Positions 41,157-62,775 of a DNA stretch of 64,000 nucleotides are shown here, piece after piece. Position 1 is the stretch's first letter. Each line of letters begins with the position of its first letter. A program made the position numbers and the translations under genes. A model generated the notes under the pieces. It had not been told where the DNA came from. It searched no databases and saw nothing but the letters and a program-made list of their open reading frames with translations. Source of the stretch: Clostridia bacterium. Its GTDB lineage: Bacteria; Bacillota; Clostridia; UMGS1840. The stretch is from assembly GCA_045631485.1 (NCBI GenBank), contig JAZQUU010000039.1:41194-105193 (forward strand), written 5' to 3'.

Positions 41157-41190
41157 TTTTAAAATCTCCTTTTTTATGATAATGTTATGA

Positions 41191-42773: not shown

Positions 42774-42785
42774 AATTCCTCCTCC

Positions 42786-43742
42786 TTATAACAAACCTAA
42801 CATCAGCCGGAACAAATCATAAATTGCGCCGCCCAATGCTCCGATTAAAAGTACCATAAACAAATATAAAAACATACTGGTTTTACTGATTTTATTATGT
42901 TCAATCGTGAAGTAAAAATTGTAATGTGCTTTCATATTGGCGTCACGTTCTTCCACCCACTGATAGGTGATGGCATCCGAACAGTTATACCCTTTCGGTG
43001 CATAATTTCGGTTTAGCTCCGCTTCCAGGCGCCTGATACGGTAACAGGTTGAATCGTTCATTTCATACTCATCGCCGAGAGAAATGGTAACCAATGCCTT
43101 TCTGATGCGTTGCTCCTGCAAATCTTCAATTTCATTGATTTCAGGCGGCAGAAGACGTGCTTCATTGATTCTGATGGAATATCCGTATTTTTCAGAAATG
43201 ATGGGACTTTGAATCAAAGAATTGATTTTATCAAACATACCGCCCACATCAATCACCGGAGCAAACACCACGTCCAGGGTTTTATGGGGTATTCTGAATA
43301 TAAGATACGCTTCATCGGATGTTATACATTCCTTAATAAATTCAAAATCAAAGGTAATCACCGTTCCGTATGAAACTGTTTCTGCTTTAATAAATTCATC
43401 GGCAAGATTGATAAGACTTACGGTTCTACCGTCATATCGAAGCTCCGAAGTGTATTTGGTTTTCTCAGAATCCACTTTTCCGTTAGTGTTAAACAACGCT
43501 CGAAGTGCCGAACTGTCGGAGAGCATATAAGATAAATCGGTGATTTCCGTTTCCTCTATCATAAAAGGAACAAAAATGTTAACTGCTTTCGTTTCTTTTG
43601 CTCCATACACACGCACGCTGATATCCACAAAGCTTTGGCCCTTTGGATTAATCCATTCATTTAAGTAAATTGTGCTTCTGTCGTCACCATCTATCCATAG
43701 CGCCCAACCATCATCGGCAAAGCGTTTTTTTTTATTTCCCAA
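42786..43742 (-). CDS. Hypothetical protein (318 aa) with a single C-terminal TM anchor
   Basis: A TTG start lies 9 nt after GGAGG and overlaps the GGDEF gene end by 11 nt. The C-terminus is MFLYLFMVLLIGALGGAIYDLF. I recognise no family. Confidence 0.6.
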   Translation of the reverse strand: MGNKKKRFADDGWALWIDGDDRSTIYLNEWINPKGQSFVDISVRVYGAKETKAVNIFVPFMIEETEITDLSYMLSDSSALRALFNTNGKVDSEKTKYTSELRYDGRTVSLINLADEFIKAETVSYGTVITFDFEFIKECITSDEAYLIFRIPHKTLDVVFAPVIDVGGMFDKINSLIQSPIISEKYGYSIRINEARLLPPEINEIEDLQEQRIRKALVTISLGDEYEMNDSTCYRIRRLEAELNRNYAPKGYNCSDAITYQWVEERDANMKAHYNFYFTIEHNKISKTSMFLYLFMVLLIGALGGAIYDLFRLMLGLL

Positions 43743-45315
43743 GCTTGGTTGCCTCCTTCATTTTCCGTTTGTTTTCATACATCGCATCGTCGGCTTTGTT
43801 AAATACATCTATAAAGTTTTTATCTTTTTTAGAATCGTATCTTGCAAAACCTTTTGCAATGTTTACGGGAATAGCTTCCTTCTCTGTATCTACAATCCTA
43901 TTTCCGCATTCTTCATCAAATTTTTTAAGAAGTAACTCTACTTCATCAAGGTCTCTGTTTTGTAAAATTGCCAAAAACTCGTCACCGCCGATTCTGAAAA
44001 CCGGACTTCTTTTAAACACATCCGATATCACGCTTGCCGCACCTACAATCAACTTGTTACCTACATCGTGACCATATCTGTCGTTGGTTTCCTTGAGATA
44101 ATTAAGGTCAAAAACCATAACGCCGAAGGCAATTTCTTTGGTTTCGATTTCTTTATCAAAATCTGTGATCCACGCCCAATATGAATTGGTGTTTCTAAGC
44201 CCTGTGAGAGTGTCGCGATATGCCATGAGATGTTGCAGTTTTTCGTGCTCCTTAAGCTGCAAAGTCATATTTTCAAACGCAGTACTTAAAAGCTTTATTT
44301 CATATGTATTGCTATGCACAATATCAACATCATAATCTCTGTTTGAAAGTTTTACCGATGCATCGGTCAGCTTTTTTAAGGGATACACAATTTTTTTCAC
44401 AATAATGATTGCTATCAAAGAAAACATCACCGCAAGAATCAGCACAACAAAAAGGATTTTTAATGCGATATCATAACGAATCTGTCTGATATCTTTATAG
44501 CTTGCAGACAGGATAAGAGTCATTCCGTTGGTTAATTCTTCAGATACACTTAAGTACTCCTCCGGATGCTCATGAAGTTTTGTATCTTCGGCATGCTCCA
44601 AATTATACACATCGGCACCTTCAAACTCCAAATGAGCAAATCCGTTTTCATAAATTTTGATATTATGAACCTTATCGGTCAAAATGCTATAGTCAAAGTC
44701 CATACCAACAATGCCAACAAACTCATTATCGTAATATAACGGTACTACATAAGAAATCATCAGGATGTTGTTGTTTTTATTGTAATAAGGCAACATCCAA
44801 ACGGGTTTTCCTGCTTCAAGCGGCTGCCAGTACCATCCCACATGCTCGGTATCAGATTTATCATAACGCGAAATATCAGTAGGTTCAAAGCGCATAAATC
44901 CGTCTTCCCTTTTTACTCTACTGTAAAACAACCCGAATGTGTTGTGCGAAAGTTCAGGTGCAAATCTGAAATAATACGCCACCGCACCATCAGTATTATT
45001 TGCTACATCAATAAACATTTCATCGGAACGCTCTAAAATATCGGCCTGTCTTTTCTCATCCTCAATATCGGCTTTACTGTTTATAAAATCGAGCACATAG
45101 CTTTCCATAATATGCACTGATTTTTCCATATCACCAAAAATATCATTGATTTGAGAAGCATCTTTTTCGCAGGTGACATTTATATAATCTTCTGTCTGAT
45201 GCTGCACAAACTGATCGACCTCATATATGCTTAATCCACCTATGAACACCGTAATAGCCAACATTGCGGATATAACGGTCATTAAAACTTTAAATTGCAT
45301 TGATTGTATTTTCAC
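43732..45315 (-). CDS. Membrane diguanylate cyclase (Cache-like sensor + HAMP + GGDEF)
   Basis: Two TM helices flank a ~260-aa ectodomain. The C-terminal GGDEF domain has RIGGDEF. It has a GTG start. Confidence 0.85.
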   Translation of the reverse strand: MKIQSMQFKVLMTVISAMLAITVFIGGLSIYEVDQFVQHQTEDYINVTCEKDASQINDIFGDMEKSVHIMESYVLDFINSKADIEDEKRQADILERSDEMFIDVANNTDGAVAYYFRFAPELSHNTFGLFYSRVKREDGFMRFEPTDISRYDKSDTEHVGWYWQPLEAGKPVWMLPYYNKNNNILMISYVVPLYYDNEFVGIVGMDFDYSILTDKVHNIKIYENGFAHLEFEGADVYNLEHAEDTKLHEHPEEYLSVSEELTNGMTLILSASYKDIRQIRYDIALKILFVVLILAVMFSLIAIIIVKKIVYPLKKLTDASVKLSNRDYDVDIVHSNTYEIKLLSTAFENMTLQLKEHEKLQHLMAYRDTLTGLRNTNSYWAWITDFDKEIETKEIAFGVMVFDLNYLKETNDRYGHDVGNKLIVGAASVISDVFKRSPVFRIGGDEFLAILQNRDLDEVELLLKKFDEECGNRIVDTEKEAIPVNIAKGFARYDSKKDKNFIDVFNKADDAMYENKRKMKEATKLGK

Positions 45316-45352
45316 TTGTGATTAACCTTTCCGCTCATCGTATAAACCCGCT

Positions 45353-45372
45353 ATGACAAACCTATAATAAAT
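45353..45372 (-). promoter_or_regulatory. Direct-repeat motif copy 1 (degenerate second unit), upstream of the GGDEF gene
   Basis: The plus strand reads ATGACAAACCTATAATAAAT. The flank AAACCCGYTATGACAAACCTAT is shared with copy 3. Confidence 0.45.
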
Positions 45373-45919
45373 TTGAGATGCGTTTTTTTGCGTTATCCAT
45401 AATTTCTTGCACATTTGCGCCGAAGATATCAAGCCCTTCTGCCGAGTAAAAGCTGATATCCGAAATACCGAAAAAGTTTTCCGAAAGTGCTTTTACATAG
45501 TCAAAACCGAAATTGTTGTTGCCGATATACCCACCCGAGGTAGTGATATAATATAACTTTTTAGCTTTGCATTTACTTACGGGGCGACCTTCTTCGGAAT
45601 ATTCGAAAGTGATTCCCGAAACTGTGATATTTTCCAAATAAATTTTTAAAATAGCAGGAAACGACAAATCCCAATACGGTGCCGCAATCACAATCATATC
45701 CACATTTGCAAACTGCTTTGCATATTTCATTTCCTCCTCGGAAACCGTATGCAATGCTCTTTTATCGATGTCTTGATTACAAAGGGGTAAAATCTTCTCT
45801 TGATACAAATGAACTTCGATGACTTCCCCGTTCAAGCCATTAAGTAAATGCCTTGAAAGTTCATCGGTTCTTGAATTTGGCCTTGCACAAGCATTGATAA
45901 ACAAGATTTTATTCTTCAT
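45362..45919 (-). CDS. Flavodoxin-like fold NAD(P)H-dependent FMN oxidoreductase
   Basis: Its ~185 aa, with the N-terminus ILFINACARPNSRT and ITTSGG, fit the NAD(P)H dehydrogenase (quinone)/azoreductase-like family. Confidence 0.7.
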   Translation of the reverse strand: MKNKILFINACARPNSRTDELSRHLLNGLNGEVIEVHLYQEKILPLCNQDIDKRALHTVSEEEMKYAKQFANVDMIVIAAPYWDLSFPAILKIYLENITVSGITFEYSEEGRPVSKCKAKKLYYITTSGGYIGNNNFGFDYVKALSENFFGISDISFYSAEGLDIFGANVQEIMDNAKKRISNLL

Positions 45920-45928
45920 GTAGTTCTC

Positions 45929-46222
45929 CTATTTCAGCATTTCTAAAAGGCCTGTCATTTCAAAAATCTCGCAAACGAGGTCGTTTGCTTTTTCAATCCG
46001 CATTGTCCCTTGATTGAAATTCATTTTTTTATAGGCAGCCAGCAGAACTCGAATTCCTGAGGAGGATATATATTCCAACTCGGACATATCAAAAACAAGC
46101 TCTTTTGTGTTATCGGAAAGTTCATCTACTATCGATTGAAGATTCGGTGCAGTTGTTGTGTCGAGTCTTCCTGCGATTGACAAAGTAACAAGTTCAAAAT
46201 CTCGTTCCACATTGATTGTCAT
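45929..46222 (-). CDS. STAS-domain anti-sigma-factor antagonist-like protein (second copy)
   Basis: IAGRLDTTTAPNLQ...LEYISSSGIRVLL. The start lies 6 nt after GGAGA. Confidence 0.85.
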   Translation of the reverse strand: MTINVERDFELVTLSIAGRLDTTTAPNLQSIVDELSDNTKELVFDMSELEYISSSGIRVLLAAYKKMNFNQGTMRIEKANDLVCEIFEMTGLLEMLK

Positions 46223-46274
46223 AAAAATTCTCCTTTCAAAGAACATAACATAAATATAAAATAGCATATCCGAT

Positions 46275-46294
46275 ATGACAAACCTATGACAAAT
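46275..46294 (-). promoter_or_regulatory. Direct-repeat motif copy 2 with an embedded -35, upstream of the STAS/flavoprotein genes
   Basis: The plus strand reads ATGACAAACCTATGACAAAT. On the minus strand this is TTTGTCATAGG-TTTGTCATATC, then 17 nt to TATATT. Confidence 0.55.
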
Positions 46295-46348
46295 TCAAAT
46301 TTATATACAAAAAATACGGCCGGATGATTCCGACCGTAAACATATTTA

Positions 46349-47128
46349 TTAATTTGTTCCAAGAAGCAGCGAGAGGGTATCTTCTGCCCAGGAATACTGT
46401 GTCATATACTCACCATGAAACTGAGGCATTCCTGTCTTTAAATACCTATGATAATCGCAGTTGATTCTGGAAGGGTCAATTCGGTAATGATAGCCGTCCT
46501 GACAAAAGACATTTTGGGCACCTACATTGGCAAGTGCTTTTTTTAAGTCTCCCACAAGATGTCTTAAATAATCCATATTTTTCACATCATCGGTGTTCTC
46601 AGGCCACATCACGGCACAGATTTGTTTTCCCGTCATCCCGGCACCGTTTCTGTCCACAAGAACAGCAAAAAGTTCTTTTGCTTTGGTGCGCTTAAAGGTA
46701 AGTGCCTCTCCGTTTTTTAAAACTTCGAAATTGCCGAAGCATTTCACGTCTAAAAGCGAAGCATTAGGTTTTTTGCTTTTAATATGGTCAATTTCTTTTT
46801 GAACCGCCTCCGGCGTGATTGGTTTCATAAGATATCCGCTGCAGCGAAGCTGTATGGCATCCAGGGCGTACTCCTCATAACCTGTGCAAAAAACAATTTT
46901 ACATTCGGGATGTAACTCAGTAATCTTTTCTGCCAAAGCAAGACCACCCATCCCGCGCATATTGATATCTAAAAAAGCAACATCTGCACAATTATGAGAA
47001 ATCCACTCCAAAGCGGCGGAGCAGACAGAAAAATCATAAACCTCTTTGATATCGGTCGATGCCTTCACAATATCCGTAAGAGCGTTGAGCATTGGTCTTT
47101 CATCATCTACTGTGATTGCTATCATCAT
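46349..47128 (-). CDS. Response regulator: REC domain + OmpR/SARP-like winged-helix DNA-binding domain
   Basis: The REC domain has DDERPML...FLDINMRGMGG...KP. The C-terminus FGNFEVLKNGEALTFKRTKAKELFAVLV resembles SARP/BTAD-type wHTH domains. The start lies 6 nt after AGGAGG. Confidence 0.8.
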   Translation of the reverse strand: MMIAITVDDERPMLNALTDIVKASTDIKEVYDFSVCSAALEWISHNCADVAFLDINMRGMGGLALAEKITELHPECKIVFCTGYEEYALDAIQLRCSGYLMKPITPEAVQKEIDHIKSKKPNASLLDVKCFGNFEVLKNGEALTFKRTKAKELFAVLVDRNGAGMTGKQICAVMWPENTDDVKNMDYLRHLVGDLKKALANVGAQNVFCQDGYHYRIDPSRINCDYHRYLKTGMPQFHGEYMTQYSWAEDTLSLLLGTN

Positions 47129-48965
47129 CGGTCCCCTCCTTTGGTATTTGTATCGTTGCCTTTGTGCCTTTTCCGATTTCACTTTCTATGGTAAGTGTTC
47201 CGTCGCACATTGCTTCAATTCGACCTCGGATATTTTTGATCCCCACATGCTTTAATTCATCATAGCCTGCATTCATATCAAAACCAACGCCATCATCGGT
47301 CACTTCAACAACATACGAGCTATCTGTCTCAAAAGCGGAGATTGTAACAATTCCGCCCTCTTCCAATCCCATAAGACCGTGCTTGATTGCATTTTCCACA
47401 AGAGGCTGAACCGAAAGTGCGGGCAAGAGAAATTCCACCGAACGAAGGTCATATTGTATGGTCATATCAGGGAAACGCACCTGCTCTATGTCGGTATAAT
47501 GCTTTACGTGATTCATTTCCTGCGAGAATCTGATAGGTTTCGCATTATCGAGTTCGCTGAAGTTCCCTCTTAAATACAAACTGAAATTACGAACAAGTTT
47601 GGAAGCTTCTTTTGGCTCCGTGATACAAAGTTGCTCAATGGTTCCCAATGTGTTATAAATAAAATGAGGCTGAATCTGACTTATCATAGTGGCGATACGG
47701 CTTTCAGTAAGTTCTGCTTTTAAAATCAGTTTTTCCGCTTCCAGTTCTCTTGCTCTGATTGCCGCGTTTAAGTTTTGCGGAACAACCTTTAAAAGCACAA
47801 TTACCGATGCCACAAAAACAAGGATAAATACAATTTCTGAAACAATTCCGCCCTGCCATAAGCCAAAACCGATTCCTGCTACATCAATGAGAAAGGAAAC
47901 CACTGGCATCGCGGCAAAAACGGAAAGTATTTTTTCATTCTTCTCCCCTTTTGCAAAACGAATTGCAAAAAGAATTATCATCACAATGCAAATCAAGCTC
48001 TGCATCGTTGCCCATATCGGTAATGCATCATAAAACTTAACATCGCAAGCTATTGGAGCAACCATACACCCAAGGGTTAAAAGCAATGAAAAAGAAGTCA
48101 AAATATTTCCGATGGTTTTAGATTTTCCCTCAAACCATCCGCCAACAACAGCCGTGATTGCAAGCATATAAAGCATAACAGAGCCCGTTACCATACGAGT
48201 GTTGAATTTAATAATTTCACTAAAGAACATCACTCCGTGGCCCTTAAATATGAAGTAGATCCCTGCCGAGAAAATACCAAAGCCCACAAGCCACAGATTT
48301 TTGCTGCCTTCAATATGAATCAGTATCGAGAATATCGCAGTCCCCAAAAGCATAAAGGCAAACAAAATCAGAGCAATGCCGAAGATTCTGTGAAAACTTC
48401 CTCGGTTTAATGTATCTCTCTCAAAAACAGTTCCGCCATAGGTGCTTAAATTATTTAAAAAATCATCAACAGCTCCGGAGTTTCCGAATTTATGAGGATT
48501 TTTCAATCTGATTGTGATTTCATCCGACCCCTGACATTCATAGCCGATATACATTTTACCGCAAAGATCCTCACCAATCAGATCGCTCTCGGCATCAAAA
48601 GGACGAAAGATTTCTCCGTCTTCTGAAATTTCGCCGCCAATGTGGTTAAAATAAAATGCCAAAATGGTACCTTGAGATGCATTGCCCACAACCTCTCCCG
48701 AAGCAGGAACAAAAAGCTTAAAATTTCCTTTCAGCGTCACATCTCCCTTGTCGGCAGGAATATGCTCTCCTTTGACATAAGGCTTAAAATCTCCGTCAGC
48801 AACTTGATACTCACCCTGAAATTGGGCAGAAAGATATATGGCATTCATCGCCTGATTCCCAAAATTTCTTCCGGTACATACAAATGTACAAAGAACAACG
48901 GCAAACAGAGCGATACAAACACCAATCACGATTTTATTTTTCAAGTTGTTTTTATTAGATTTCAT
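47103..48965 (-). CDS. Sensor histidine kinase, LytS/YesM-type (His_kinase PF06580-like + HATPase) with an ectodomain and a 7-TM module
   Basis: The H-box region is QIQPHFIYNTL, the N-box ENAIKHG and the G-box DDGVGF...GIKNIRGR. The N-terminus has a signal-anchor plus a ~180-aa ectodomain and 7 TM helices. The gene overlaps the regulator gene. Confidence 0.85.
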   Translation of the reverse strand: MKSNKNNLKNKIVIGVCIALFAVVLCTFVCTGRNFGNQAMNAIYLSAQFQGEYQVADGDFKPYVKGEHIPADKGDVTLKGNFKLFVPASGEVVGNASQGTILAFYFNHIGGEISEDGEIFRPFDAESDLIGEDLCGKMYIGYECQGSDEITIRLKNPHKFGNSGAVDDFLNNLSTYGGTVFERDTLNRGSFHRIFGIALILFAFMLLGTAIFSILIHIEGSKNLWLVGFGIFSAGIYFIFKGHGVMFFSEIIKFNTRMVTGSVMLYMLAITAVVGGWFEGKSKTIGNILTSFSLLLTLGCMVAPIACDVKFYDALPIWATMQSLICIVMIILFAIRFAKGEKNEKILSVFAAMPVVSFLIDVAGIGFGLWQGGIVSEIVFILVFVASVIVLLKVVPQNLNAAIRARELEAEKLILKAELTESRIATMISQIQPHFIYNTLGTIEQLCITEPKEASKLVRNFSLYLRGNFSELDNAKPIRFSQEMNHVKHYTDIEQVRFPDMTIQYDLRSVEFLLPALSVQPLVENAIKHGLMGLEEGGIVTISAFETDSSYVVEVTDDGVGFDMNAGYDELKHVGIKNIRGRIEAMCDGTLTIESEIGKGTKATIQIPKEGTDDDSNHSR

Positions 48966-49002
48966 AGCAATCATTCTCCGAACCGGTATTTCTATTCGTG
49001 GA

Positions 49003-49266
49003 TTACAAACTCAACAATATGATAAGCGCTGCCAAAAAAACCGCTCCTGCAATCGCAACATAAGACAATGCGCGTTTTACTTTCCAGTAGGAAAACGCCT
49101 CGCATACACACACAACGATTATGGCAATACAGGTAATCAAATCTGCTGAACCTACTTTTCCTGCTCTTTCCAACGCTTGAAAAATCAGATACACCAATAA
49201 TGCAATTCCCGCAATAATGTCCATAACTTTTTGAAATGCAGTTTTTTCACTCCATTTTTGATTCAT
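49003..49266 (-). CDS. Small membrane protein (3 TM)
   Basis: The sequence is hydrophobic and lies upstream of the kinase gene on the same strand. I place the start at the ATG (MNQKW). Confidence 0.5.
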   Translation of the reverse strand: MNQKWSEKTAFQKVMDIIAGIALLVYLIFQALERAGKVGSADLITCIAIIVVCVCEAFSYWKVKRALSYVAIAGAVFLAALIILLSL

Positions 49267-49298
49267 GGTGAACACCTCTTTCGTATATTTTATCAGAT

Positions 49299-51209
49299 TT
49301 ATTTCGTTTTTTCAATAAATCTGTGAAGAATTACCGCAAATTCTGCTCTTGTGGCGTAATCCTTGGGATTTACCGTGCTGATTGTTTTCCCGTTTATCAA
49401 TCCTTCGCCGATCACATACTGCATGGCAGGAATTGCATATTCTGTGATATCAAAAGCATCATCGTAGGAAAGTATATTGGTTTCCTCACCCACACTGATA
49501 TCATATTCCTTAAACTGTGCATACAGATATAAAACGGATGAAAGTTGTTCACGGGTAATCGTTGATTGGGGATGAAAATCCTTATCATTTTCATAAATCA
49601 AACCGTTATCTTTCGCCCAACAAACTGCCTCGGCATACCAAGGGGCATCCTCCGTGGATTCATATTCCGACTTTATTTCTTCCAGATTGTATAAAATTTG
49701 AAAAAGCTCTGCCCAAGTGATATCTTTTTGAGGATGAAAGAATTTGTTTTCATCACCCTGCATCAGTTTATTTTTCAAACAATATGCCACGCCATCGTGA
49801 TACCAATCGTATTCGGGCAAATCATTTCCGTCAATGCTAAAGTAAGGAACAATTGCTGTGGTAAGTTCCTCAAACCAGGTTTTCCCGTTGGTTCTTTGGG
49901 TATCAAGCGTATTGATAATATAGGAACGGATACGTTGACGAACCGCCGGATTTTCGGGTTGTGCTATACTTCCCACTGCACTGATCACGTAATAATTCCC
50001 GTCTCTTTCACCAAGGTACATCATTTCGTGACCACTAAAATAGAGAATGGTTCCAAACGGAAGAGCGTCAAAAAATTTGATTTTTTCTTCCTTTGCCATA
50101 TACTGCATATCCACCTTTACCATAGGCATAGCGGTCTGCCAGGTGGTATTTCGTGCAAGCTCCAATCCAAAACACTTATACACATTTCTCATATAACCCG
50201 AACAATCATCGGAATTAAGGCTTCCGCCCCAACCATAGGTATTGCCGAGTGCCGAAAATGCTACTTTTGAAATATTCTCTTTTGTAAGAGGCATATATCC
50301 CGCCGATACATTTTCGTGCTCTGAAATAAGCGTTAATTTTTCGGAATATGTGCCATTTTCCTTTCTTGCAGGCACCCGCACAACATAATTATTGTACGCT
50401 GCGCGGTTATCGATAAGCTCGTTAGGGTCAACATCTTTCGCAAGTTTCAAAACCGTTCCCATCGTGAGCATAAGGTCTGATCGGTCTGCACCTACTATTG
50501 AAGTTTCGGTAAACACCTTATCGCCCCATACAACAAGAACATCTTCGCTTTTAATATCCCAGGCAGAAAGCCACTCATCCTTATCTTTGCAAATGGCAAC
50601 TGAGTCAGCAGGAATCCATCCTGAACAACAAATGCTTTTCGCAAGATAGAATTTGCCATCTTTTGACTTTGATGTGATAACAACCGGTTCATTCACTCGG
50701 ACGGCAACCAGATACTGATAGTCAAAATCGGAGTCTGACGGGTCGTCCCAAATAGCAATCGGAGACGGAAATGTACGAAGCTCGGTTCTTTTGGTTGCGA
50801 TACCATAAAGCACCTTTTGCTCTTTTTTAGCATCGGAATTTTGAGTGTTTGCAATGATTTTATCATAATCCTTTTGTGTGGCTTTCTCAGTACTTTCCAA
50901 ATATGTCCAACCAAAATAATAATTGGCATCCGCCTGAGAAGATTGTAAAATTGCTCTATTTAATGCAATTCCGTCGACCACTTCAGGTTGATTTTTCAGG
51001 TCGTACATATTCGTACCCTTTGCCGCAATTGTTTCCCGATTCAGTTTCTCTATTTCGGCATAAGTCATTAACACATCCGATTCATCTGTCCAATAGGACG
51101 GAGCGGTCATTTCACTCGTTACATCAGGAAGATAATAGCCCCCTGCCGCCAAACAGTTTACCGTCGTGCATAAAATCAACGGAATTAAAAATAACAATTT
51201 CTTTTTCAT
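49299..51209 (-). CDS. Secreted NlpC/P60 cell-wall hydrolase with an SH3-like domain and three C-terminal SLH repeats
   Basis: There is a signal peptide. The NlpC/P60 catalytic region is DCSGYMRNVY...GHEMMYLG. The three SLH-like repeats are WYHDGVAYCLKN.., PWYAEAVCWAKDNGL.. and AIPAMQYVIGEGLING... Confidence 0.8.
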   Translation of the reverse strand: MKKKLLFLIPLILCTTVNCLAAGGYYLPDVTSEMTAPSYWTDESDVLMTYAEIEKLNRETIAAKGTNMYDLKNQPEVVDGIALNRAILQSSQADANYYFGWTYLESTEKATQKDYDKIIANTQNSDAKKEQKVLYGIATKRTELRTFPSPIAIWDDPSDSDFDYQYLVAVRVNEPVVITSKSKDGKFYLAKSICCSGWIPADSVAICKDKDEWLSAWDIKSEDVLVVWGDKVFTETSIVGADRSDLMLTMGTVLKLAKDVDPNELIDNRAAYNNYVVRVPARKENGTYSEKLTLISEHENVSAGYMPLTKENISKVAFSALGNTYGWGGSLNSDDCSGYMRNVYKCFGLELARNTTWQTAMPMVKVDMQYMAKEEKIKFFDALPFGTILYFSGHEMMYLGERDGNYYVISAVGSIAQPENPAVRQRIRSYIINTLDTQRTNGKTWFEELTTAIVPYFSIDGNDLPEYDWYHDGVAYCLKNKLMQGDENKFFHPQKDITWAELFQILYNLEEIKSEYESTEDAPWYAEAVCWAKDNGLIYENDKDFHPQSTITREQLSSVLYLYAQFKEYDISVGEETNILSYDDAFDITEYAIPAMQYVIGEGLINGKTISTVNPKDYATRAEFAVILHRFIEKTK

Positions 51210-51261
51210 AACTGCTTGCCCCTTTTTTATTGTTCAATTAAATACATTGCATCTTAATTTT

Positions 51262-52272
51262 TTAGTTTTCAGCTCTGTTATGGATTCCTCCAAGAGCATC
51301 CATTTCAGCATCAATTTGAGCACCGTGATTTACTATTGCTCCGCTACAGAAAATATCAGCATCTTTTTTCTCGGAAACAGCATAAACATTAGCGCCGTTA
51401 TTTGCCTCTAAAGAACCGAAGCACTCAATAGCATAAGTGTTCTTTGATGCTGCTTTCACAGTTGAACCGTTACCAATCTCCATAAGACCGGATACCCGTA
51501 CACATTCGCCCAAATCTGTAGCATCATCATCAACAAAAACTTCAAGAGAGGTGTCTTTGCCAAGGAACAAATCTCCGCTGACACCAAGTCCTTTGCAACT
51601 TTCACTAGCACCTTGTTTTACTGAAACATTGAGCGAAGTGCCTTCCTCAAAAAGAGCGTTGCCACGAACGCGAACACCTACACAGTTCTTTGCAGCACCA
51701 TTGTTCACAGTAACTGCCGCTTTTTCTGCAACCAACAAAGAGGAATCACAGACGATTCCGTTCAACTTGTTTTCACAATCCGAGGTTTTAAGCGTAACGT
51801 CACTCATAACTTTAAGATCGGATGCATAAATTCCGACTGCTTCCGCACTTTTACTTGGGAATTCGATTGTTAAAGAACCATCTCCCAAAAATGTAAGATC
51901 CTTACTGAGATAGTAGTCACTTACGTAAATGCCGGCGCTGTATTCTTCGTTAGTGCAGACAAGTTTATTTTCGCCGATAAGTTCAATATTCAAATCTATT
52001 TTTGAATAAACACCCCAATCATTTGATTCAATTGTGGCATTATCAAATGTCAGGATATTATTCCGGGCATTATAGTACACCGTACCGTCACCTAAAATAT
52101 CGCTTGCATTCGTTTTTTTCACGGATACACCTGCAACCTGAATTTTCCCCGATGTGAGGTCCATAGATCTGTTACCAAACATCAGAGCAACACCCCAAAA
52201 TGTACTCCAGATTAAAGCAAGCACAAGGAGTACACCAATGACGATTTTAAAACCTTTTTTGACCTTTGCCAT
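51262..52272 (-). CDS. Membrane-anchored protein with repetitive beta-solenoid-like ectodomain
   Basis: An N-terminal TM anchor is followed by repeated G/N/V-rich ~25-aa segments. I do not name a family with confidence. Confidence 0.55.
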   Translation of the reverse strand: MAKVKKGFKIVIGVLLVLALIWSTFWGVALMFGNRSMDLTSGKIQVAGVSVKKTNASDILGDGTVYYNARNNILTFDNATIESNDWGVYSKIDLNIELIGENKLVCTNEEYSAGIYVSDYYLSKDLTFLGDGSLTIEFPSKSAEAVGIYASDLKVMSDVTLKTSDCENKLNGIVCDSSLLVAEKAAVTVNNGAAKNCVGVRVRGNALFEEGTSLNVSVKQGASESCKGLGVSGDLFLGKDTSLEVFVDDDATDLGECVRVSGLMEIGNGSTVKAASKNTYAIECFGSLEANNGANVYAVSEKKDADIFCSGAIVNHGAQIDAEMDALGGIHNRAEN

Positions 52273-52347
52273 AGTAATTCTCCTTAGTTCATTTATTTCT
52301 TCTTACCAAATTAAATACCAATTATTTTTTATATTATCAAACCCGTT

Positions 52348-52367
52348 ATGACAAACCTATGACAAAT
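52348..52367 (-). promoter_or_regulatory. Direct-repeat motif copy 3, upstream of gene 51262..52272
   Basis: The plus strand reads ATGACAAACCTATGACAAAT. On the minus strand this is TTTGTCATAGG-TTTGTCATAAC, then 15-17 nt to TATAAA/TAAAAA. Confidence 0.55.
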
Positions 52368-52375
52368 TATTTTAT

Positions 52376-52428
52376 AAAAAAACAAAATGCAATACTCGTA
52401 TGTATCTGACAAACAAGTATTGCATTTT
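52376..52428 (-). terminator. Rho-independent terminator ending the cargo-B plus element-B transcript
   Basis: A 13-bp stem, AAAATGCAATACT/AGTATTGCATTTT, is followed on the minus strand by T7. Confidence 0.8.
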
Positions 52429-52461
52429 AGTTTAACATTGAGATTTATTATAAAATCATTT

Positions 52462-52738
52462 GACACAACGCTTACTCGTGTCAAGTCAGGAGAACAGTGA
52501 ATAATAAGAACCATCACCCAACACGAAATCACAGATTTCTGTTGGGTACCCGAGAGCCTTGATACTCGCAAGCTCGTATTAGGACCTACTAACTTTTCCC
52601 TATTTTTTCACTATAGTTTTTCCGAACAAAATTCTTTAGAACCCGCGAGAATACTGAATTTTCTCGCTCCTGCTTTTTATGTAAATATCATAAATCGGCA
52701 AACTAATATTTTAAATTTTATAGACTTGACACGAGTAA
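52462..52738 (-). repeat. Copy B of the ~260-nt conserved structured non-coding element, immediately 3' of ORF 52747..53484
   Basis: It is homologous to 30329-30591. A perfect 16-bp terminal helix pairs 52472-52487 with 52723-52738. It has a covarying hairpin at 52517-52546, the hairpin GCGAGAA-N9-TTCTCGC at 52645-52667, and a distal hairpin GACACGA-N7-TTGTGTC (minus sense). Confidence 0.8.
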
Positions 52739-52746
52739 AACAAAAA

Positions 52747-53484
52747 TCATCTTATATCAAATGCACACTCGTCGGTTGTGTTAGTTAATTCAGCCCACCT
52801 AGCTGAAAGCAATTTGGCATAGTCCAAATAAAACAAACCATAGCACCCTAACGCATATCCGTCATTTACTTCAATCATCAATGTCCTACCATCATCAGTT
52901 ACACCAAAGTCTATTGCATATCCTTTGGGTGCAGTAGAGAAAGCTTTCACAGCATCCTCAATGACCGATGGGTTATAGTGAATTTTCCAATCACCTTTGT
53001 ATGGTCTTACATCCAGTATTTTGTCATATCTAACAAAACATCTCCACTCTGCTGTAAAATTTACAATTTCAGAGCACATCGCGTCGGGATCTTCCCCACA
53101 TGTTCCACACCCTATTAAATCTTTAGGAGACCGAACAACAACACCAGTAAATTTTTTATCTTCAACTGGCTTCACAAAAACTGGCCACATGTCTGGATTA
53201 TTGGTTACTTGACTCATTTTTACCGGCCAGATTTTTCTTCCTAAAAATCTTGACAACTCATTAGGGTAATCCATTTCAGGTGTTATAATATTAAAATCAA
53301 ACAATCTTTCTCTTACTGTACCAACATATCCAACAACCACATCTTCAATGTTACTTTTTCTTAATTCTTCGGGAGTTTGGAACATAATCGTTTCAAATCC
53401 CATTTCCTTAAATCCCTGATAAGCATTAAAAAAATTATAATTGTGTGGCATATAATCATTTTTAGATTGTATATACACTTTCAT
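52747..53484 (-). CDS. ATP-grasp-like protein (DUF4343-type), cargo gene of repeat unit B
   Basis: FVKPVEDKKFTGVVV, EWRCFVRYDKILDVRPY and YAIDFGVTDDGRTLMIEVNDGYALG resemble the ATP-grasp DUF4343 family. Confidence 0.65.
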   Translation of the reverse strand: MKVYIQSKNDYMPHNYNFFNAYQGFKEMGFETIMFQTPEELRKSNIEDVVVGYVGTVRERLFDFNIITPEMDYPNELSRFLGRKIWPVKMSQVTNNPDMWPVFVKPVEDKKFTGVVVRSPKDLIGCGTCGEDPDAMCSEIVNFTAEWRCFVRYDKILDVRPYKGDWKIHYNPSVIEDAVKAFSTAPKGYAIDFGVTDDGRTLMIEVNDGYALGCYGLFYLDYAKLLSARWAELTNTTDECAFDIR

Positions 53485-53526
53485 TAAGTATTCACCACCA
53501 TATTTCCTTGTTTTTCAATCTTATTC

Positions 53527-53561
53527 GACACAATTCGAGTTCGTGTCAAGACAGGATAAAA
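53527..53561 (-). repeat. 5' hairpin site of unit B (LE-B)
   Basis: The minus strand reads TTTTATCCTGTCTTGACACGA-actcgaa-TTGTGTC, which has the same architecture as LE-A. Confidence 0.7.
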
Positions 53562-53700
53562 CAATTGTTTTAATATCGATTAACCAAGCTTAAAATTTGA
53601 AAATTTAAATATTTCTTTTATTAGTCACAGTATAGCACTATCCCCGGTTTGTGTCAAGGAATCTTCCCGGAAAAAAATATTGATTTTTTTATAAAAATGC

Positions 53701-53729
53701 TTGACAATTATTGGAAGTTATGGTAGACT
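53701..53729 (+). promoter_or_regulatory. Sigma-A type promoter for feoAB
   Basis: TTGACA, a 17-nt spacer, then TAGACT. Confidence 0.55.
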
Positions 53730-53753
53730 AACTAACGGTTAGTTATGACTAAC
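53728..53753 (+). promoter_or_regulatory. Palindromic operator (three half-sites) overlapping the feoA -10 and start site
   Basis: CTAACTAAC-GGTTAGTTA-TGACTAAC. The core TAACTAAC-g-GTTAGTTA is a perfect 8-1-8 palindrome. Confidence 0.5.
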
Positions 53754-53786
53754 TCGAAAAAATCCACACAATGATCAGGTGAAGAT

Positions 53787-54002
53787 ATGAATTTAAAAGA
53801 TGCTTTAGAAGGAAAAGAATATACCGTTTCGGAAATTTGCACGGATGATGAAGAATTGGAAGCTTTTTTATTCTCTCTCGGTTGCTATGCAGGTGAAAAA
53901 ATCACTGTAATTTCTCAGAAGAAAAAAGGCTGCACCGTTGCAATTAAGGACAGTCGTTATCATCTTGACCAATTATTGGCACAAGCAATTCTGATAGTTT
54001 GA
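53787..54002 (+). CDS. feoA: FeoA-family iron transport protein
   Basis: It is a 71-aa SH3-like FeoA protein directly upstream of feoB. Confidence 0.85.
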   Translation: MNLKDALEGKEYTVSEICTDDEELEAFLFSLGCYAGEKITVISQKKKGCTVAIKDSRYHLDQLLAQAILIV

Positions 54003-54018
54003 TATTTTTTTGAATATT

Positions 54019-54036
54019 GGTTAGTTATAACTAACC
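54019..54036 (+). promoter_or_regulatory. Second copy of the operator, between feoA and feoB
   Basis: GGTTAGTTATAACTAACC is a perfect 18-bp palindrome. It matches GGTTAGTTATGACTAAC in the upstream site except at one base. Confidence 0.5.
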
Positions 54037-54084
54037 GTTCAACGACTTTTGTTTTAAAACATTACATATATAAGGAGTTTCATT

Positions 54085-56103
54085 ATGAAAATTGCATTTG
54101 CCGGAAATCCGAATTCCGGAAAAACGACAATGTATAATGCACTGACCGGTCAAAATGAAAAAGTGGGAAACTGGGCAGGTGTTACGGTTGATAAAAAAGA
54201 ACATCGAATCAAAAAAACATATTGTCCCAACGGAATGGATATCATTGCAGTCGATTTACCCGGTGCATACTCCATGTCCCCTTTTACATCCGAGGAATCC
54301 ATCACCAGAGATTATGTGCAACAAGAAAATCCCGATGTTTTAATCAATATTGTGGATGCAACAAACTTGGGACGCAGTTTGTTTTTTACCACACAAATTT
54401 TAGAACTGGGAATTCCCGTTGTAATTGCTTTAAATAAAAGTGATATCAACGAAAAAAAGCAAACCGTTATCAATGTGACGGAATTAGCCAAGCAGTTGGG
54501 ATGCCCTGTTGTGGAAACGATTTCCACATCCTCGGAAGGACTTGGAGATTTAATTGCGGCAGCAGTAAGACAAATCGGAGAACAACAAAGTGCTCCCTTT
54601 ATTCAGAATAATATCGATTTTACCGATAAGAAAGCCGTAAGAGATGCCGACAAAAAACGCTTTCAATTCGTTAATTTAATTGTTTCTGCGGTGGAAAGCA
54701 GAAAAATCAAATCCAAAGATCACACCATCAGTGATAAAATTGATGATATTATCACCAACAAATGGGTTGGGCTTCCGATTTTTGCCGTGGTGATGTGGTT
54801 TGTATTCTTTGTATCTCAGGCTTGGTTAGGGCCTTGGTTGGCAGATGAAATCCTCTGTCCTGCAATTGATAGTTTCGGAGAATTGGTTGCGGCTTGGATG
54901 GAAGGAACAGAACCGATTTTACAAACCATTGTTGTGGATGGAATCGTGGGCGGTTTTAGTGCAGTGGTTGGATTTTTGCCCCTTGTAATGGTGATGTATT
55001 TTCTGATTGCAATGTTGGAAGATTGCGGTTATATGGCAAGAGCTACCGTTGTGTTGGATCCTATTTTCAAAAAAGTAGGGTTATCCGGAAAATCCGTGAT
55101 TCCCTTTGTCATCGGGACAGGTTGTGCCATCCCCGGCGTTATGGCGTGTCGTACCATTCGTGATGAGAGAGAAAGAAGAGCGGCAGCTATGCTTACTCCC
55201 TTTATGCCCTGCGGTGCAAAATTACCTGTGATTGCCTTGTTTGCAGGCGTATTCTTCGGAGACAACCCCTGGGTTGGAACCGTTATGTATTTTGTGGGGA
55301 TTCTTCTGATATTTATCGGAGCATTATTAGTGAATGCCATTGTTGGTTGTAAACGAAAAAATTCTTATTTTATTATTGAGTTACCCGAATATAAAGCACC
55401 ATCTGTGAAACGGGCATTCTTCTCTATGTGTTCCCGTGGTTGGGCGTACATTGTAAAAGCGGGAACCATTATTCTGGTTTGTAATGCTCTGGTTACCATT
55501 ATGCAGGGATACGGTTGGGATTTTCGTCCTACTGAAAATGTAGATTCATCCATTTTAGCTTCCATCTCTGCACCGATTGCCTTTTTACTGATTCCCCTTG
55601 GATTCGGTGTGTGGCAAATGGCGGCAGCTTCCGTTACCGGTTTTATTGCTAAAGAAAACGTTGTGGGAACTCTTGCATCTGTTTACGGAATTTCCAATTT
55701 TATTAATGCAGAAGAACTTGCTATGGTGGAAGGTTCGGCAGCCAATATTGAAAGTGTGCTTGGAATTTCAGCAGCAGCCGGACTTGCTTGCCTGGTATTT
55801 AATTTGTTTACTCCCCCCTGCTTCGCTGCAATCGGTGCAATGAATGCAGAATTAAAAAGTAAAAAATGGTTATTAGGCGGATTATCTTTACAACTCGGTA
55901 TCGGATATATGATGGCATTTTTCGTATATCAGTTTGGAACTCTGTTTACAGAAGGTACCTTTGGTGTTGGATTTATTCCCGGATTGTTGGCAATTTTAGT
56001 TATGGTTGCGATTATAATCGGCTTAATTATCCACGGTAAACAACGGTTAGAGCAAGAACAACAAAGCAAAAATCGAGCAAAACAAACAAAACAAGCAATC
56101 TAA
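54085..56103 (+). CDS. feoB: Ferrous iron transporter FeoB
   Basis: The N-terminal G-domain has GNPNSGKTT, DLPG and NKSD, followed by the polytopic gate domains. Confidence 0.95.
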   Translation: MKIAFAGNPNSGKTTMYNALTGQNEKVGNWAGVTVDKKEHRIKKTYCPNGMDIIAVDLPGAYSMSPFTSEESITRDYVQQENPDVLINIVDATNLGRSLFFTTQILELGIPVVIALNKSDINEKKQTVINVTELAKQLGCPVVETISTSSEGLGDLIAAAVRQIGEQQSAPFIQNNIDFTDKKAVRDADKKRFQFVNLIVSAVESRKIKSKDHTISDKIDDIITNKWVGLPIFAVVMWFVFFVSQAWLGPWLADEILCPAIDSFGELVAAWMEGTEPILQTIVVDGIVGGFSAVVGFLPLVMVMYFLIAMLEDCGYMARATVVLDPIFKKVGLSGKSVIPFVIGTGCAIPGVMACRTIRDERERRAAAMLTPFMPCGAKLPVIALFAGVFFGDNPWVGTVMYFVGILLIFIGALLVNAIVGCKRKNSYFIIELPEYKAPSVKRAFFSMCSRGWAYIVKAGTIILVCNALVTIMQGYGWDFRPTENVDSSILASISAPIAFLLIPLGFGVWQMAAASVTGFIAKENVVGTLASVYGISNFINAEELAMVEGSAANIESVLGISAAAGLACLVFNLFTPPCFAAIGAMNAELKSKKWLLGGLSLQLGIGYMMAFFVYQFGTLFTEGTFGVGFIPGLLAILVMVAIIIGLIIHGKQRLEQEQQSKNRAKQTKQAI

Positions 56104-56121
56104 ATAAGGAGTGATTCTTTT

Positions 56122-56280
56122 ATGAGAAATCTTCTTGCAATTGGGATTATTGTGATTGTGCTGGGGAATGCTGTTTGGTACATTATCAAAAAACGAAAAA
56201 AAGGAATTGCCTGCATCGGTTGTCCAAACGGAAACTGCAAGGCATGCAAAGAGGAACATCGTTGTAATAATCCTTATTAA
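56122..56280 (+). CDS. FeoB-associated Cys-rich small membrane protein (52 aa; below the ORF-track size cutoff)
   Basis: My own translation gives MRNLLAIGIIVIVLGNAVWYIIKKRKKGIACIGCPNGNCKACKEEHRCNNPY. It has one TM helix and a CxxC-rich tail. The RBS is AAGGAG, and the ORF starts 18 nt after the feoB stop. Confidence 0.7.
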   Translation: MRNLLAIGIIVIVLGNAVWYIIKKRKKGIACIGCPNGNCKACKEEHRCNNPY

Positions 56281-56291
56281 AACTAATAAAA

Positions 56292-62041: not shown

Positions 62042-62087
62042 TACGAATACCTCCATAATTTATTTTTTGTTTTTTACGAAATTGGAT

Positions 62088-62723: not shown

Positions 62724-62775
62724 TTTTAAATCCTCCTGGCCTTTGGCCTTTTATAATAATTTTTATTAACGATTG

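Follow-up and report, generated by a model that had tools for sequence, protein, structure and literature searches.

The window analysed here (64,000 nucleotides of a Clostridia bacterium, contig JAZQUU010000039.1 of GenBank assembly GCA_045631485.1, positions 41,194 to 105,193) carries, at two places on the minus strand, a promoter, a short motif in the 5' UTR of an ORF, the ORF itself and a long intergenic element. We refer to these places as locus A and locus B, and to their elements as copy A and copy B. Read in the sense of the genes, the element opens with a 5' motif, T (GTGTCAAGTC). An AT-rich segment, a hairpin (P1) and a spacer come next, and the 3' end is a near-invariant block closed by a 12-mer, M (CCTGACTTGACA), whose consensus T repeats in inverted form. 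An M that precedes an ORF on its own, as it does at both window ORFs among others, is called a solo M here. The features of the two loci are as follows.

31210-31238, minus strand: locus A, sigma-70-type promoter before the solo M, TTGACA-17-TAGAAT with TG (11/12 consensus matches)
31165-31197, minus strand: locus A, solo M, CCTGACTTGACA with hairpin GACACGA/TCGTGTC, in the 5' UTR of the ORF
30605-31129, minus strand: locus A, cassette ORF, 174 aa from ATG; no Pfam, NCBIfam or PADLOC match
30329-30595, minus strand: copy A, full element, long form (nhmmer profile E=8e-53 over 30331-30595; fold z)
30582-30591, minus strand: copy A, T motif, GTGTCAAGTC (sequence and A/B alignment)
30504-30526, minus strand: copy A, hairpin P1 (sequence, compensatory changes, pair counts)
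30366-30440, minus strand: copy A, optional 75-nt insert; its H2 stem (30378-30410) is of the second main version
30331-30365, minus strand: copy A, near-invariant 3' block; M' core at 30339-30350
53629-53657, minus strand: locus B, sigma-70-type promoter before the solo M, TTGACA-17-TATACT with TG (11/12 consensus matches)
53527-53559, minus strand: locus B, solo M, CCTGTCTTGACA with a hairpin and TGTCGAA, in the 5' UTR of the ATP-grasp ORF
52747-53484, minus strand: locus B, cassette ORF, 245-aa R2K-clade ATP-grasp protein (Pfam PF18299, E=4e-55)
52461-52739, minus strand: copy B, full element, long form, T to M' (nhmmer profile E=2e-53; alignment to copy A; fold z)
52723-52738, minus strand: copy B, T motif, TTACTCGTGTCAAGTC, starting 8 nt past the stop codon of the upstream ORF; inverted M consensus
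52645-52667, minus strand: copy B, hairpin P1, GCGAGAA-N9-TTCTCGC, then GGGTTCTAA (compensatory changes, pair counts)
52506-52580, minus strand: copy B, optional 75-nt insert: hairpin H1, CAAGGCTCTC, hairpin H2 (52517-52546), GTGATGGTTCTT
52460-52505, minus strand: copy B, near-invariant 3' block: ATTATTCACTGTTCT, M' core CCTGACTTGACA (52479-52490), M hairpin (52460-52484)
52376-52428, minus strand: hairpin and T run resembling an intrinsic terminator, about 30 nt downstream of copy B (read from the sequence)

The original prediction described two homologous segments in the same orientation; both lie where it placed them, and all of the identical strings that it quoted are there. In a minus-strand alignment the copies are 81% identical by column, with a perfect common block of 42 nt, which includes the 3' block of copy B; three more blocks (85, 42 and 41 nt) match at 78-90%. 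The hairpin said to combine a conserved inner stem (GAAATC/GATTTC) with an exchanged outer stem was confirmed in both copies: the outer stem of H2 is GAAATATA/TATATTTC in copy A and CCCAACA/TGTTGGG in copy B. The predicted GCGAGAA-N9-TTCTCGC hairpin is present in each, and the ends of the element can pair (16 bp in copy B, 10 bp in copy A), because T is an inverted copy of M. On the minus strand the two copies fold at -85.2 and -84.4 kcal/mol, far better than shuffled sequences; z-scores against dinucleotide shuffles are -5.2 for copy B and -6.4 (-6.35) for copy A. The segments had been thought to lack a credible ORF, and we agree: the only overlapping frame is a mechanical 80-aa TTG ORF across copy B. 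A conserved ORF was rejected on either strand, since an antisense frame with a Shine-Dalgarno sequence and GTG start encodes short peptides that differ between A, B and the short form of the element, and indels are not multiples of three.

The element is also unclassified, as had been proposed. A search of the whole window against Rfam 15 at the gathering score returned no match, and relaxed searches found nothing within copy B at E<=10 and nothing at E<=0.1 in three arrays of homologues holding at least 11 copies. At the relaxed threshold the terminator-like hairpin near copy B was also a source of chance miRNA-like matches. ARAGORN gave no match on the element, and neither did searches of phage, plasmid and viral-contig sequences. 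A literature search on the conserved strings retrieved unrelated primers only, and one on integron-like systems in Clostridia retrieved nothing relevant.

The homologue collection that the original prediction had proposed recovered a large family. One exact 25-mer from the 42-nt block shared by A and B occurs in 114 loci from roughly 95 species-level Clostridia metagenome-assembled genomes (MAGs), and a profile search yielded 184 matches, 140 of them full length. The hosts form a clade of gut Clostridia comprising Congzhengia, Ructibacterium and related MAGs, in which the element reaches only a few copies per genome. Instead of a discrete RNA gene of about 260 nt present twice, as first described, there are thus at least 140 copies of a modular intergenic element, 190-345 nt in length, packed between co-directional ORFs. 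The family is uncatalogued, and it lies at the boundaries of horizontally exchanged gene cassettes in this group of gut Clostridia.

Comparison of the copies reveals which parts of the element are fixed and which vary. The stem of P1 changes from GCGAGAA/TTCTCGC to GCAGGAA/TTCCTGC in about 22 of 88 copies, a compensatory exchange of GC and AU at two stem positions. H1 and H2 each exist in several stem versions, so that pairing in P1, H1 and H2 is preserved despite sequence change. In both H2 and the M hairpin a G bulges out of the 3' arm. H1 and H2 belong to the 75-nt insert, which is present in about a third of the copies (about 50 of 138), sits after GGTCCT, ends in GGTTCTT and occurs as a tandem pair in four copies, at three loci (L018, L035 and L045). 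A hairpin followed by GGTTCT occurs three times within the element. We rejected the idea that the insert is an independent mini-element, since all 67 of its sense copies lie inside the element. The "fully covarying stem" of the original prediction is real, but it sits in a segment that about two thirds of the members lack. That stem had been taken to indicate selection on structure. Compensatory changes do keep the hairpins when many homologues are compared; the two main versions of H2 look like replacements of a whole stem, not like seven independent substitutions.

The two halves of the element are also found separately, as solo M and solo T, and in some loci the 5' half alone lies directly before genes. 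Across related loci, T has 119 occurrences on the sense strand and the M core has 195, against 2 on the antisense strand. At 66 junctions M has no T partner, and the paired-ends structure is therefore not essential. Partner-specific co-variation of T with its own M, or with the upstream M, was no better than in random pairings.

These structural features raise the question of whether the element is a free-standing non-coding RNA gene of about 200-270 nt, transcribed alone or cut from the cassette mRNA at the T:M' stem and having a trans-acting function of its own. Strong fold z-scores, covarying hairpins, long and highly conserved unpaired stretches and the terminator after copy B would all suit such a gene, which in view of the Rfam result would represent a new class. 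However, the structure signal is equal on both strands. G-T pairs had been read as pointing to the minus strand as the folded one, a claim that finds no support: folding is of similar quality on the two strands, with a slight advantage of the antisense strand in the consensus fold. G-U pairs outnumber A-C pairs in P1 by 28 to 13 among unique sequences, and attempts to choose the folded strand by wobble pairs or by energies gave no decision. For the common short form, folding yields only a weak consensus RNA structure (9 pairs, -5.7 kcal/mol), and the main variant has no convincing promoter of its own. An RNA gene would also have to account for multiple copies per locus, always wedged between ORFs, and for the separate occurrence of the element's halves. 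We consider an RNA gene quite improbable; the element looks more like a cassette junction of the integron type.

The placement of the element relative to genes is highly regular. Twenty-seven loci carry two to four copies each, separated by gaps of 270-4900 bp, and in 27 of 27 the copies share one orientation. The resulting arrays are unidirectional, with 1-4 ORFs per unit. For 127 of the 140 full-length copies a same-strand upstream ORF was found, and in 110 of these 127 its stop codon lies within 60 nt of the element. No downstream ORF lies within 150 nt of about a fifth of the copies, among them the two window copies and the final unit of locus L116. The flanking ORFs are extremely diverse and rich in orphans, with no protein family present in more than 8 of the 114 loci. 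The cargo includes toxin-like or defence-like genes, with Bro-N, RhuM, DMP19, AbiEii, TIR, Fic and HEPN among the neighbours, and a PADLOC search of ten cassette proteins returned no matches.

The uniform orientation bears directly on the possibility that the element is an invertible promoter, in which an invertase would act on T and M' as its inverted repeats and flip a promoter lying between them. Inverted repeats of 10-16 bp do flank 165-315 bp of sequence with promoter-like matches, and homologous copies are scattered before accessory or surface-protein genes. The invertible promoters of Bacteroides and Clostridioides are likewise homologous segments of 150-300 bp that bear promoters, are flanked by inverted repeats and lie upstream of variable accessory loci. 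They differ in that no inverted copy was seen among more than 140 instances here: none of the 140 full elements is flipped relative to its neighbouring genes or to other copies at the same locus. The promoter matches are also weak. We rejected the inverton reading on the uniform orientation and regard it as extremely improbable.

Several lines of evidence indicate that M marks the edges of exchanged DNA. In comparisons between genomes, homology starts at M in 26 of 132 cases and ends at M in 24 of 149, where about 1 would be expected. The maxima at M in 200 randomisations were 7 for starts and 4 for ends, and the observed values are about 20 times chance. Conservation of the element everywhere limits the placing of right-hand breakpoints to an interval from T to about +100. 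Locus L030 and locus L060, which belongs to another species, have a stretch of about 1.44 kb in common that is essentially 100% identical. It begins exactly at an M, which belongs to a full element in L060 and stands alone behind an unrelated ORF in L030. Homologous recombination between copies of the element could be the source of part of the breakpoint signal. This boundary signal is the strongest in the data, and the original prediction could not have seen it.

The window cassettes themselves recur elsewhere. The 174-aa ORF of locus A has only 44 homologues among 5.8 billion proteins, and they occur in three other contexts with junction motifs in each. The ATP-grasp ORF of locus B has a 97%-identical homologue in locus L128, where it lies behind an SLH gene, a different genomic context, and is likewise flanked by M and T; homology between locus B and L128 begins at the solo M and continues through T. 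The upstream ORFs of A and B were also compared with each other, and homology between them was rejected. Each of the two window cassettes lies precisely at the edge of a synteny block shared with a related species; that species has other genes at these positions and neither M nor T. In the closest related species (locus L131) the system is entirely absent. A metagenome scan with a conserved Tex 32-mer and exact look-ups of the window FeoA returned no empty site and no cassette replacement at the same site, the edges of the sole locus pair of indel type carry neither M nor T, and no empty site or excised circle was observed.

Mobility of this kind could also reflect a non-autonomous transposable element, either a miniature inverted-repeat element (MITE) bounded by T and M' or mobile insertion cassettes that carry genes and are bounded by M and T. 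The transposase would be encoded elsewhere and might be a hairpin-recognising, single-strand HUH enzyme of the IS200/IS605 or REP-associated type. The terminal inverted repeats of 10-18 nt, the several hairpins with the same GGTTCT motif after each, the doubling of the insert and the lack of an enzyme gene linked to the element are in keeping with this proposal, and a strict strand bias suits single-strand transposition. Yet the element is never opposite to neighbouring genes in orientation, the junctions inspected show no evident target-site duplication, and there are only a few copies per genome. Many units have no T, so that M-T inverted repeats are not general ends, and genes differ on both flanks of shared units, which is not expected from the insertion of a small element between syntenic genes. 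The Correia elements of Neisseria, ERIC, the pneumococcal BOX/RUP and REP/BIME resemble the present family in being modular, hairpin-forming and multi-copy, and in lying in 3' UTRs or between cistrons; they have terminal inverted repeats, are co-transcribed with genes and can carry promoter or RNase III functions. Unlike the family described here, they insert in both orientations, reach much higher copy numbers per genome and do not mark where exchanged modules begin or end. Transposition in either form is, in our judgement, improbable.

A purely cis-acting role in gene expression is a serious rival, though on balance we think it fairly unlikely. M and the TGTCGAA-like boxes that follow it with a period of 10 nt would form a leader or operator for a global regulator, acting as DNA or in the 5' UTR. 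The segment from T to P1 would be a 3'-UTR or weak-promoter module, and the hairpins would serve in the mRNA for processing, stability or the insulation of cistrons; shuffling would be a by-product of recombination between conserved linkers. In line with a leader, M is strictly gene-oriented (195:2) and lies 35-90 nt before start codons that have a ribosome-binding site, and in the window it stands in 5' UTRs behind unrelated strong promoters. Exact TGTCGAA occurs 164 times in sense and 19 times in antisense; 95 occurrences lie 5-30 nt past M, at spacings of 10, 20 and 30 nt. TGTCGAA fits the Spo0A 0A-box consensus, TGNCGAA, and in sequence the boxes resemble a Spo0A-regulated operator, in which they often lie in tandem at 10-bp spacing near a promoter; Spo0A would be a candidate regulator if these organisms have it. 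One variant of the element has a consensus TTGCAA-17-TATAAT promoter, the loci with only the 5' half directly before genes are readily accommodated, and structured RNAs typically take up extra hairpins at permissive points, as the optional inserts would be. Against this role, the link between the element and its upstream ORF is tighter than that with any ORF downstream, and about 20% of copies, both window copies included, have no gene to serve. An internal sigma-70 promoter was not supported as a general feature, since matches in the main variant reach 9/12 at most, no better than shuffles. Left-hand breakpoints occur at M even where less than 20 nt upstream is common to both sequences, which is poorly explained by homologous recombination, and the short-form fold is weak, as noted above.

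The explanation that we favour, tentatively and at a little short of an even chance, is a gene-cassette system in which the element would serve for junction and recombination, working like an integron attC site but without a linked integrase. A cassette, read on the minus (gene-sense) strand, would consist of an M core, a short leader with a ribosome-binding site and 1-4 ORFs. Usually T, the AT-rich segment, P1, the spacer and any hairpin inserts would come after these, up to the invariant block, which closes with the M of the cassette that follows. The pairing partner of T would be part of that following cassette. A recombinase encoded elsewhere in the genome would recognise M, probably together with the folded hairpins, and would insert or exchange cassettes at M, behind resident promoters. 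Insertion of this kind would explain why both window cassettes lie directly behind strong sigma-70 promoters and a solo M. We infer that recombination is site-specific rather than driven by homology and that the hairpins may act in single-stranded DNA. No linked protein family or recombinase was found across the 114 loci, and large serine recombinases are present in only 3-5 of them. A simple motif regex (H-x-[LFMIV]-R-[HRK]-[STA] / [LMIV]-G-H-x(5-12)-Y) detected no ORF resembling a tyrosine recombinase in the window or in the 114 genome loci, each at most 8 kb; an integrase encoded farther away would have escaped this search.

The likeness to integrons extends to several features. Arrays of integron attC sites ("59-base elements"), among them the Vibrio cholerae repeats of chromosomal integrons, are likewise unidirectional and hold compact, mostly orphan ORFs with a repeat after each; here too, arrays keep one orientation with one or a few ORFs per repeat, and their cassettes occur in different contexts. 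The ends of attC repeats are also inverted copies able to pair, with the distal end forming part of the next cassette, and the arrangement of T and M follows the logic of the R'' and R' boxes. Both kinds of repeat have a centre of variable length, and in integrons the first cassette likewise follows a resident promoter and a partial site. An attC site is an imperfect palindrome whose ends pair and which has extrahelical bases; the 10-16 bp of end pairing and the bulged G of H2 and of the M hairpin resemble this in part, given the greater length and conserved interior of the element. With regard to the integron platform (IntI, attI and Pc beside the array), a promoter and solo M are present before the first ORF, but no IntI-type integrase was found in any locus. 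Clusters of attC sites that lack an integrase (CALINs) indicate that arrays are possible without an integrase nearby.

There are also clear differences. The attC core is GTTRRRY / RYYYAAC, whereas the corresponding sequences here are CCTGACTTGACA / GTGTCAAGTC, the ends of the element being GACTTGACAC(GAGTAA) and the inverse GTGTCAAGTC. At 190-345 nt the element is longer than attC (57-141 nt), its interior is far more conserved in sequence, strongly so across genera, and many junctions consist of M alone. Integrons are not known from Firmicutes, to which the hosts of this family belong. The pdif/Xer modules of Acinetobacter plasmids offer a second comparison, as they are likewise bounded by short sites in alternating inverted orientation and moved by a recombinase unlinked to the module. 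A Xer/dif site is 28 bp in length, with two 11-bp arms around a 6-bp spacer. M and T are unlike the 28-bp XerC-spacer-XerD architecture of pdif, and the modules here are chromosomal, with about 170 nt of extra conserved sequence at the junction. On visual inspection, the arms of M are 7 nt long and its loops differ in length, and M seems unlike Firmicute dif sites.

A more ambitious version of the cassette reading is that this is the first integron-like gene-capture system of Firmicutes. The element, carrying a sense (M') and an inverted (T) copy of an 18-nt junction site along with conserved hairpins, and perhaps acting as folded single-stranded DNA or as an RNA guide, would be the substrate of an unlinked and possibly new recombinase that inserts cassettes at M behind resident promoters. 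We offer it as a speculative extension that is rather unlikely in full.

Integron-type gene capture is not known from Gram-positive gut anaerobes. Even if its role were purely regulatory, the element would still be notable as a leader or 3'-UTR module of 190 nt whose near-invariant blocks of 35 nt are common to dozens of unrelated genes across genera, an unusual regulon marker. As a conserved and easily recognised junction that delimits exchanged gene modules across about 95 species, it provides a sequence tag for retrieving accessory and orphan genes from gut metagenomes and a defined target for finding the recombinase responsible. The family also offers a concrete test case for the question of whether cassette systems have arisen more than once.

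The two full-length copies of the element lie on the minus strand, which is also the strand of the adjoining genes, at the positions and in the common orientation of the original prediction. Their proposed homology is borne out: in a minus-strand alignment copies A and B are 81% identical by column, and share one perfect 42-nt block and others of 41-85 nt at 78-90% identity. The hairpins quoted earlier occur in both copies, and the ends of the element pair over 16 bp in B and 10 bp in A. Minus-strand folds of the two copies reach -85.2 and -84.4 kcal/mol (z = -5.2 and -6.4). No conserved ORF was found in either copy, and a tRNA and tmRNA search of the element found none. The element matched no Rfam family at any threshold, and the whole window none at gathering score, in keeping with the element's earlier description as unclassified.

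Each copy begins 8-10 nt past the stop codon of an upstream ORF. Repeat finding revealed that the element's final ~33 nt recurs alone in the 5' UTR of both ORFs. This motif, M, consists of the core CCTGACTTGACA and a short hairpin; its inverse, T (TTACTCGTGTCAAGTC), forms the 5' end of the element. Both solo M sites lie directly 3' of a strong sigma-70-type promoter that matches the consensus at 11/12 positions and has a TG extension. No gene lies directly downstream of either copy, and a terminator-like hairpin follows copy B.

Features of the two window loci
53527-53559, minus: solo M of locus B, in the 5' UTR of the ATP-grasp ORF
53527-53500, minus: TGTCGAA-bearing leader downstream of M
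52747-53484, minus: upstream ORF of locus B, R2K ATP-grasp protein, 245 aa
52461-52739, minus: copy B
31165-31197, minus: solo M of locus A, in the 5' UTR of the 174-aa ORF
31165-31140, minus: TGTCGAA-bearing leader downstream of M
30605-31129, minus: upstream ORF of locus A, orphan, 174 aa
30331-30595, minus: copy A

Homology between the two upstream ORFs was considered and rejected; they are unrelated. Another terminator-like hairpin (GGTTCGGCGATTTCCGACGAACC, then a T run) lies on the plus strand at 30222-30260, between copy A and a CAAX-protease gene; no gene on that strand lies upstream of it. Among repeats in the window, the largest family is a 292-nt direct repeat with 88% identity (61763-62054 and 62445-62736, 682 nt apart).

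An exact 25-mer of the invariant block occurred at 114 loci in a species-level genome collection, from roughly 95 Clostridia MAGs as judged by accession prefixes. The hosts, mostly from animal guts, are labelled Congzhengia, Ructibacterium, Aphodoplasma, Oscillospiraceae and similar. Metagenomes contributed thirteen further loci; viral contigs, phages and plasmids yielded none. A profile HMM gave 184 matches, 140 of them full length, in loci that are 8-kb slices of MAGs rather than whole genomes. About two thirds of the copies have a short form (190-207 nt) and one third a long form (265-345 nt). With ORFs called mechanically, 127 of the 140 full copies proved to have an upstream ORF on the same strand, and for 110 of the 127 its stop is no more than 60 nt away from the element; a same-strand downstream ORF starts within ~80 nt of roughly two thirds of copies. 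The 27 multi-copy loci carry 2-4 copies each in uniform orientation, 270-4900 bp apart, and those mapped are unidirectional arrays in which 1-4 ORFs separate successive junctions. Sense-strand occurrences of the M core number 195, against two in antisense; 66 of the 195 are solo sites outside full elements, where the typical order is stop codon, T run, CCTGACTTGACA, hairpin, TGTCGAA-like boxes, RBS and ATG.

Parts of the element, in the sense direction
1: T, GTGTCAAGTC with flanks
2: AATTTAAAAGATTAGTTTGCCGAT...ATATTTACATAT
3: hairpin P1, GCGAGAA-N9-TTCTCGC, then GGGTTCTAA
4: variable spacer, A-rich
5: TAGTAGGTCCT
6: optional insert
7: ATTATTCACTGTTCT, then M core and M hairpin

The optional insert, 74-76 nt long, comprises hairpin H1, CAAGGTTCTC, hairpin H2 and GTGATGGTTCTT, and always lies 3' of GGTCCT; four copies at three loci carry it in tandem duplicate. 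It was considered as an independent mini-element and rejected as such, none being found outside the element. The "fully covarying stem" of the original prediction is H2: its pairing is indeed kept in several versions, but it belongs to the optional insert only. The two common versions are those in the window, with at least two rarer ones besides, and single compensatory variants occur (GAAACATA/TATGTTTC and GCAATC/GATTGC, for example). H1 varies likewise (TTATGC/GCATAA, TTACGC/GCGTAA, TTGTGC/GCACAA), and two adjacent pairs of P1 are switched in ~22 of 88 short copies. This variation preserves pairing in P1, H1 and H2, which argues that the hairpins are under selection as structures.

Two further optional hairpin-rich inserts occupy other fixed points, and T-to-M start-to-start distances cluster at 166-168, 239-243 and ~315 nt. 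Five elements (L016:~5370, L036:~1160, L055:~5360, and L018 and L076 on the minus strand) share a ~150-nt hairpin-rich insertion (AATATATGCAACAAGCCTTGC...TTTTTACTCCTGGTAG), invariably 5' of P1 and directly 3' of TTTACATA(T/A)A.TAT; it represents either another optional module or a small insertion element with site specificity. Three elements (L023:1096-1358, L042:4173-4437, L062:2983-3223) have a GC-rich hairpin, GGGGCGATTCACGAATCGCCCC, within the A-rich spacer. That the element as a whole is a MITE or hairpin-transposon is a less likely reading.

The short form has a weak consensus RNA fold (9 pairs, -5.7 kcal/mol), which consists essentially of P1 and four long-range pairs. The original prediction took the minus strand as the folded one from its G-T pairs. 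This did not hold up: fold z-scores are similar in sense (-2.6 and -3.5) and antisense (-3.2 and -5.6), the alignment fold is slightly better in antisense, and P1 favors G-U over A-C by only 28:13. The structure therefore points neither to a folding strand nor to RNA over single-stranded DNA, and a free-standing RNA is among the less likely readings. So is an invertible promoter. Promoter-like sequences within the main variant reach only 9/12 matches, no better than shuffles, but a minority variant does carry TTGCAA-17-TATAAT.

The flanking ORFs are extremely diverse (Bro-N, RhuM, DMP19, LRR, AbiEii, acyltransferases, glycosidases, transporters and many orphans), and no protein family recurs in more than 8 loci. 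A 97%-identical homologue of the ATP-grasp protein lies on a Logan contig, L128, preceded by tRNA-synthetase, glycosyltransferase, epimerase and SLH genes. At the nucleotide level, homology to the window starts at M, spans the ORF and T and reaches into the element; 5' of M the two are unrelated, though L128 too has promoter-like sequence there, as read from the sequence. Remoter homologues (84% and 80%) lie in defence-like gene arrays without M or T. The 174-aa ORF has only 44 homologues, and those examined occupy three other contexts. Each has a junction of this type ahead of it, in some with the diverged core CTAACTTAACA, and behind it either T and the element start or a solo junction. Related genomes (L136-L139) use this diverged core, (C)CTAACTTAACA. 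Remoter homologues of both window ORFs (L129, L130, L139) sit in unidirectional, defence-island-like arrays with HEPN/AbiU2, T5orf172, AAA_21/DUF4435, Fic and TIR-domain genes.

L131, a locus from a related species (FeoA 89% identical), is syntenic with window positions 31254-37058 (Tex to aminotransferase) and 53683-56281 (FeoAB). Each of the two window cassettes exactly abuts the outer edge of one of these blocks (breakpoints 31254 and 53683), where L131 has phosphofructokinase and a CBM9 gene, and L131 contains neither M nor T anywhere. Between the two blocks, at 37058-53683, the window carries ~16.6 kb of signalling genes (SpoIIE-type phosphatase, RelA/SpoT, GGDEF, STAS, a two-component system) that are missing from L131 at this position. 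A tandem-repeat motif, ATGACAAACCTATGACAAA, occurs three times upstream of minus-strand genes (45344-45373, 46266-46295, 52339-52368), near a LytS-type histidine kinase (47103-48974) and response regulator (46349-47182), and looks like an operator unrelated to the junction element.

When the oriented loci were compared all-versus-all, 76 blocks of homology emerged (≥450 bp, ≥80% identity). Block starts fell at M in 26 of 132 cases and block ends in 24 of 149, where ~1 was expected and the maxima of 200 randomisations were 7 and 4; these are BLAST block ends, which extend through conserved element sequence. The element thus marks the borders of gene modules. In the clearest case, two loci from different species (L030 and L060) share ~1.44 kb at essentially 100% identity. 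The shared stretch starts exactly at M, as a solo site 3' of an unrelated ORF in L030 and as the terminal part of a full element in L060, and stops inside the next element. Right-hand ends can be placed only from T to ~100 nt into the element, because that stretch is conserved in every copy. Large serine recombinase genes of one protein cluster lie directly upstream of the element in 3-5 loci, including L005:673-2022 and L016:2955-4538, and other sequence replaces T in L005, which suggests that integrative elements may use the region as an attachment site.

The main rival explanation, a serious one though less likely than the reading we favor, is that the element acts only in regulation, as a leader or 3'-UTR module. 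M lies 35-90 nt ahead of start codons and is followed by 10-nt-periodic TGTCGAA boxes that match the Spo0A 0A-box consensus, TGNCGAA. Exact TGTCGAA occurs 164 times in sense versus 19 in antisense in 806 kb of related loci; 95 copies lie 5-30 nt past M, with successive boxes 10, 20 or 30 nt apart. Conserved linkers, moreover, would attract recombination in any case. However, no gene lies downstream of about one fifth of elements, both window copies among them, and left breakpoints fall at M despite less than 20 nt of common upstream sequence. Many leaders (in L049, L009:6058, L081 and L023, for example) carry an extra conserved hairpin module, AGGTTTGCATCTAAACCT then TATGTGTCGCAAT.

Like integron cassettes, the arrays are compact and unidirectional, and their ORFs are diverse and often orphans. 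Behind each ORF comes a repeat with ends that are inverted copies of each other, a center of varying length and bulged hairpins. As in integrons, the distal end of the repeat (here M) belongs to the next cassette, the final cassette is followed by a last repeat, and a promoter and partial site precede the first. The element is nonetheless not an integron family member: it has other core sequences, exceeds attC two- to threefold in length, and is conserved in sequence in its interior. A regex test found no integrase-like ORF in any locus (≤8 kb). Given the parallel in anatomy, the reading we favor, tentatively and at somewhat less than even confidence, is that the element would be both a junction between cassettes and a recombination site for an unlinked recombinase.
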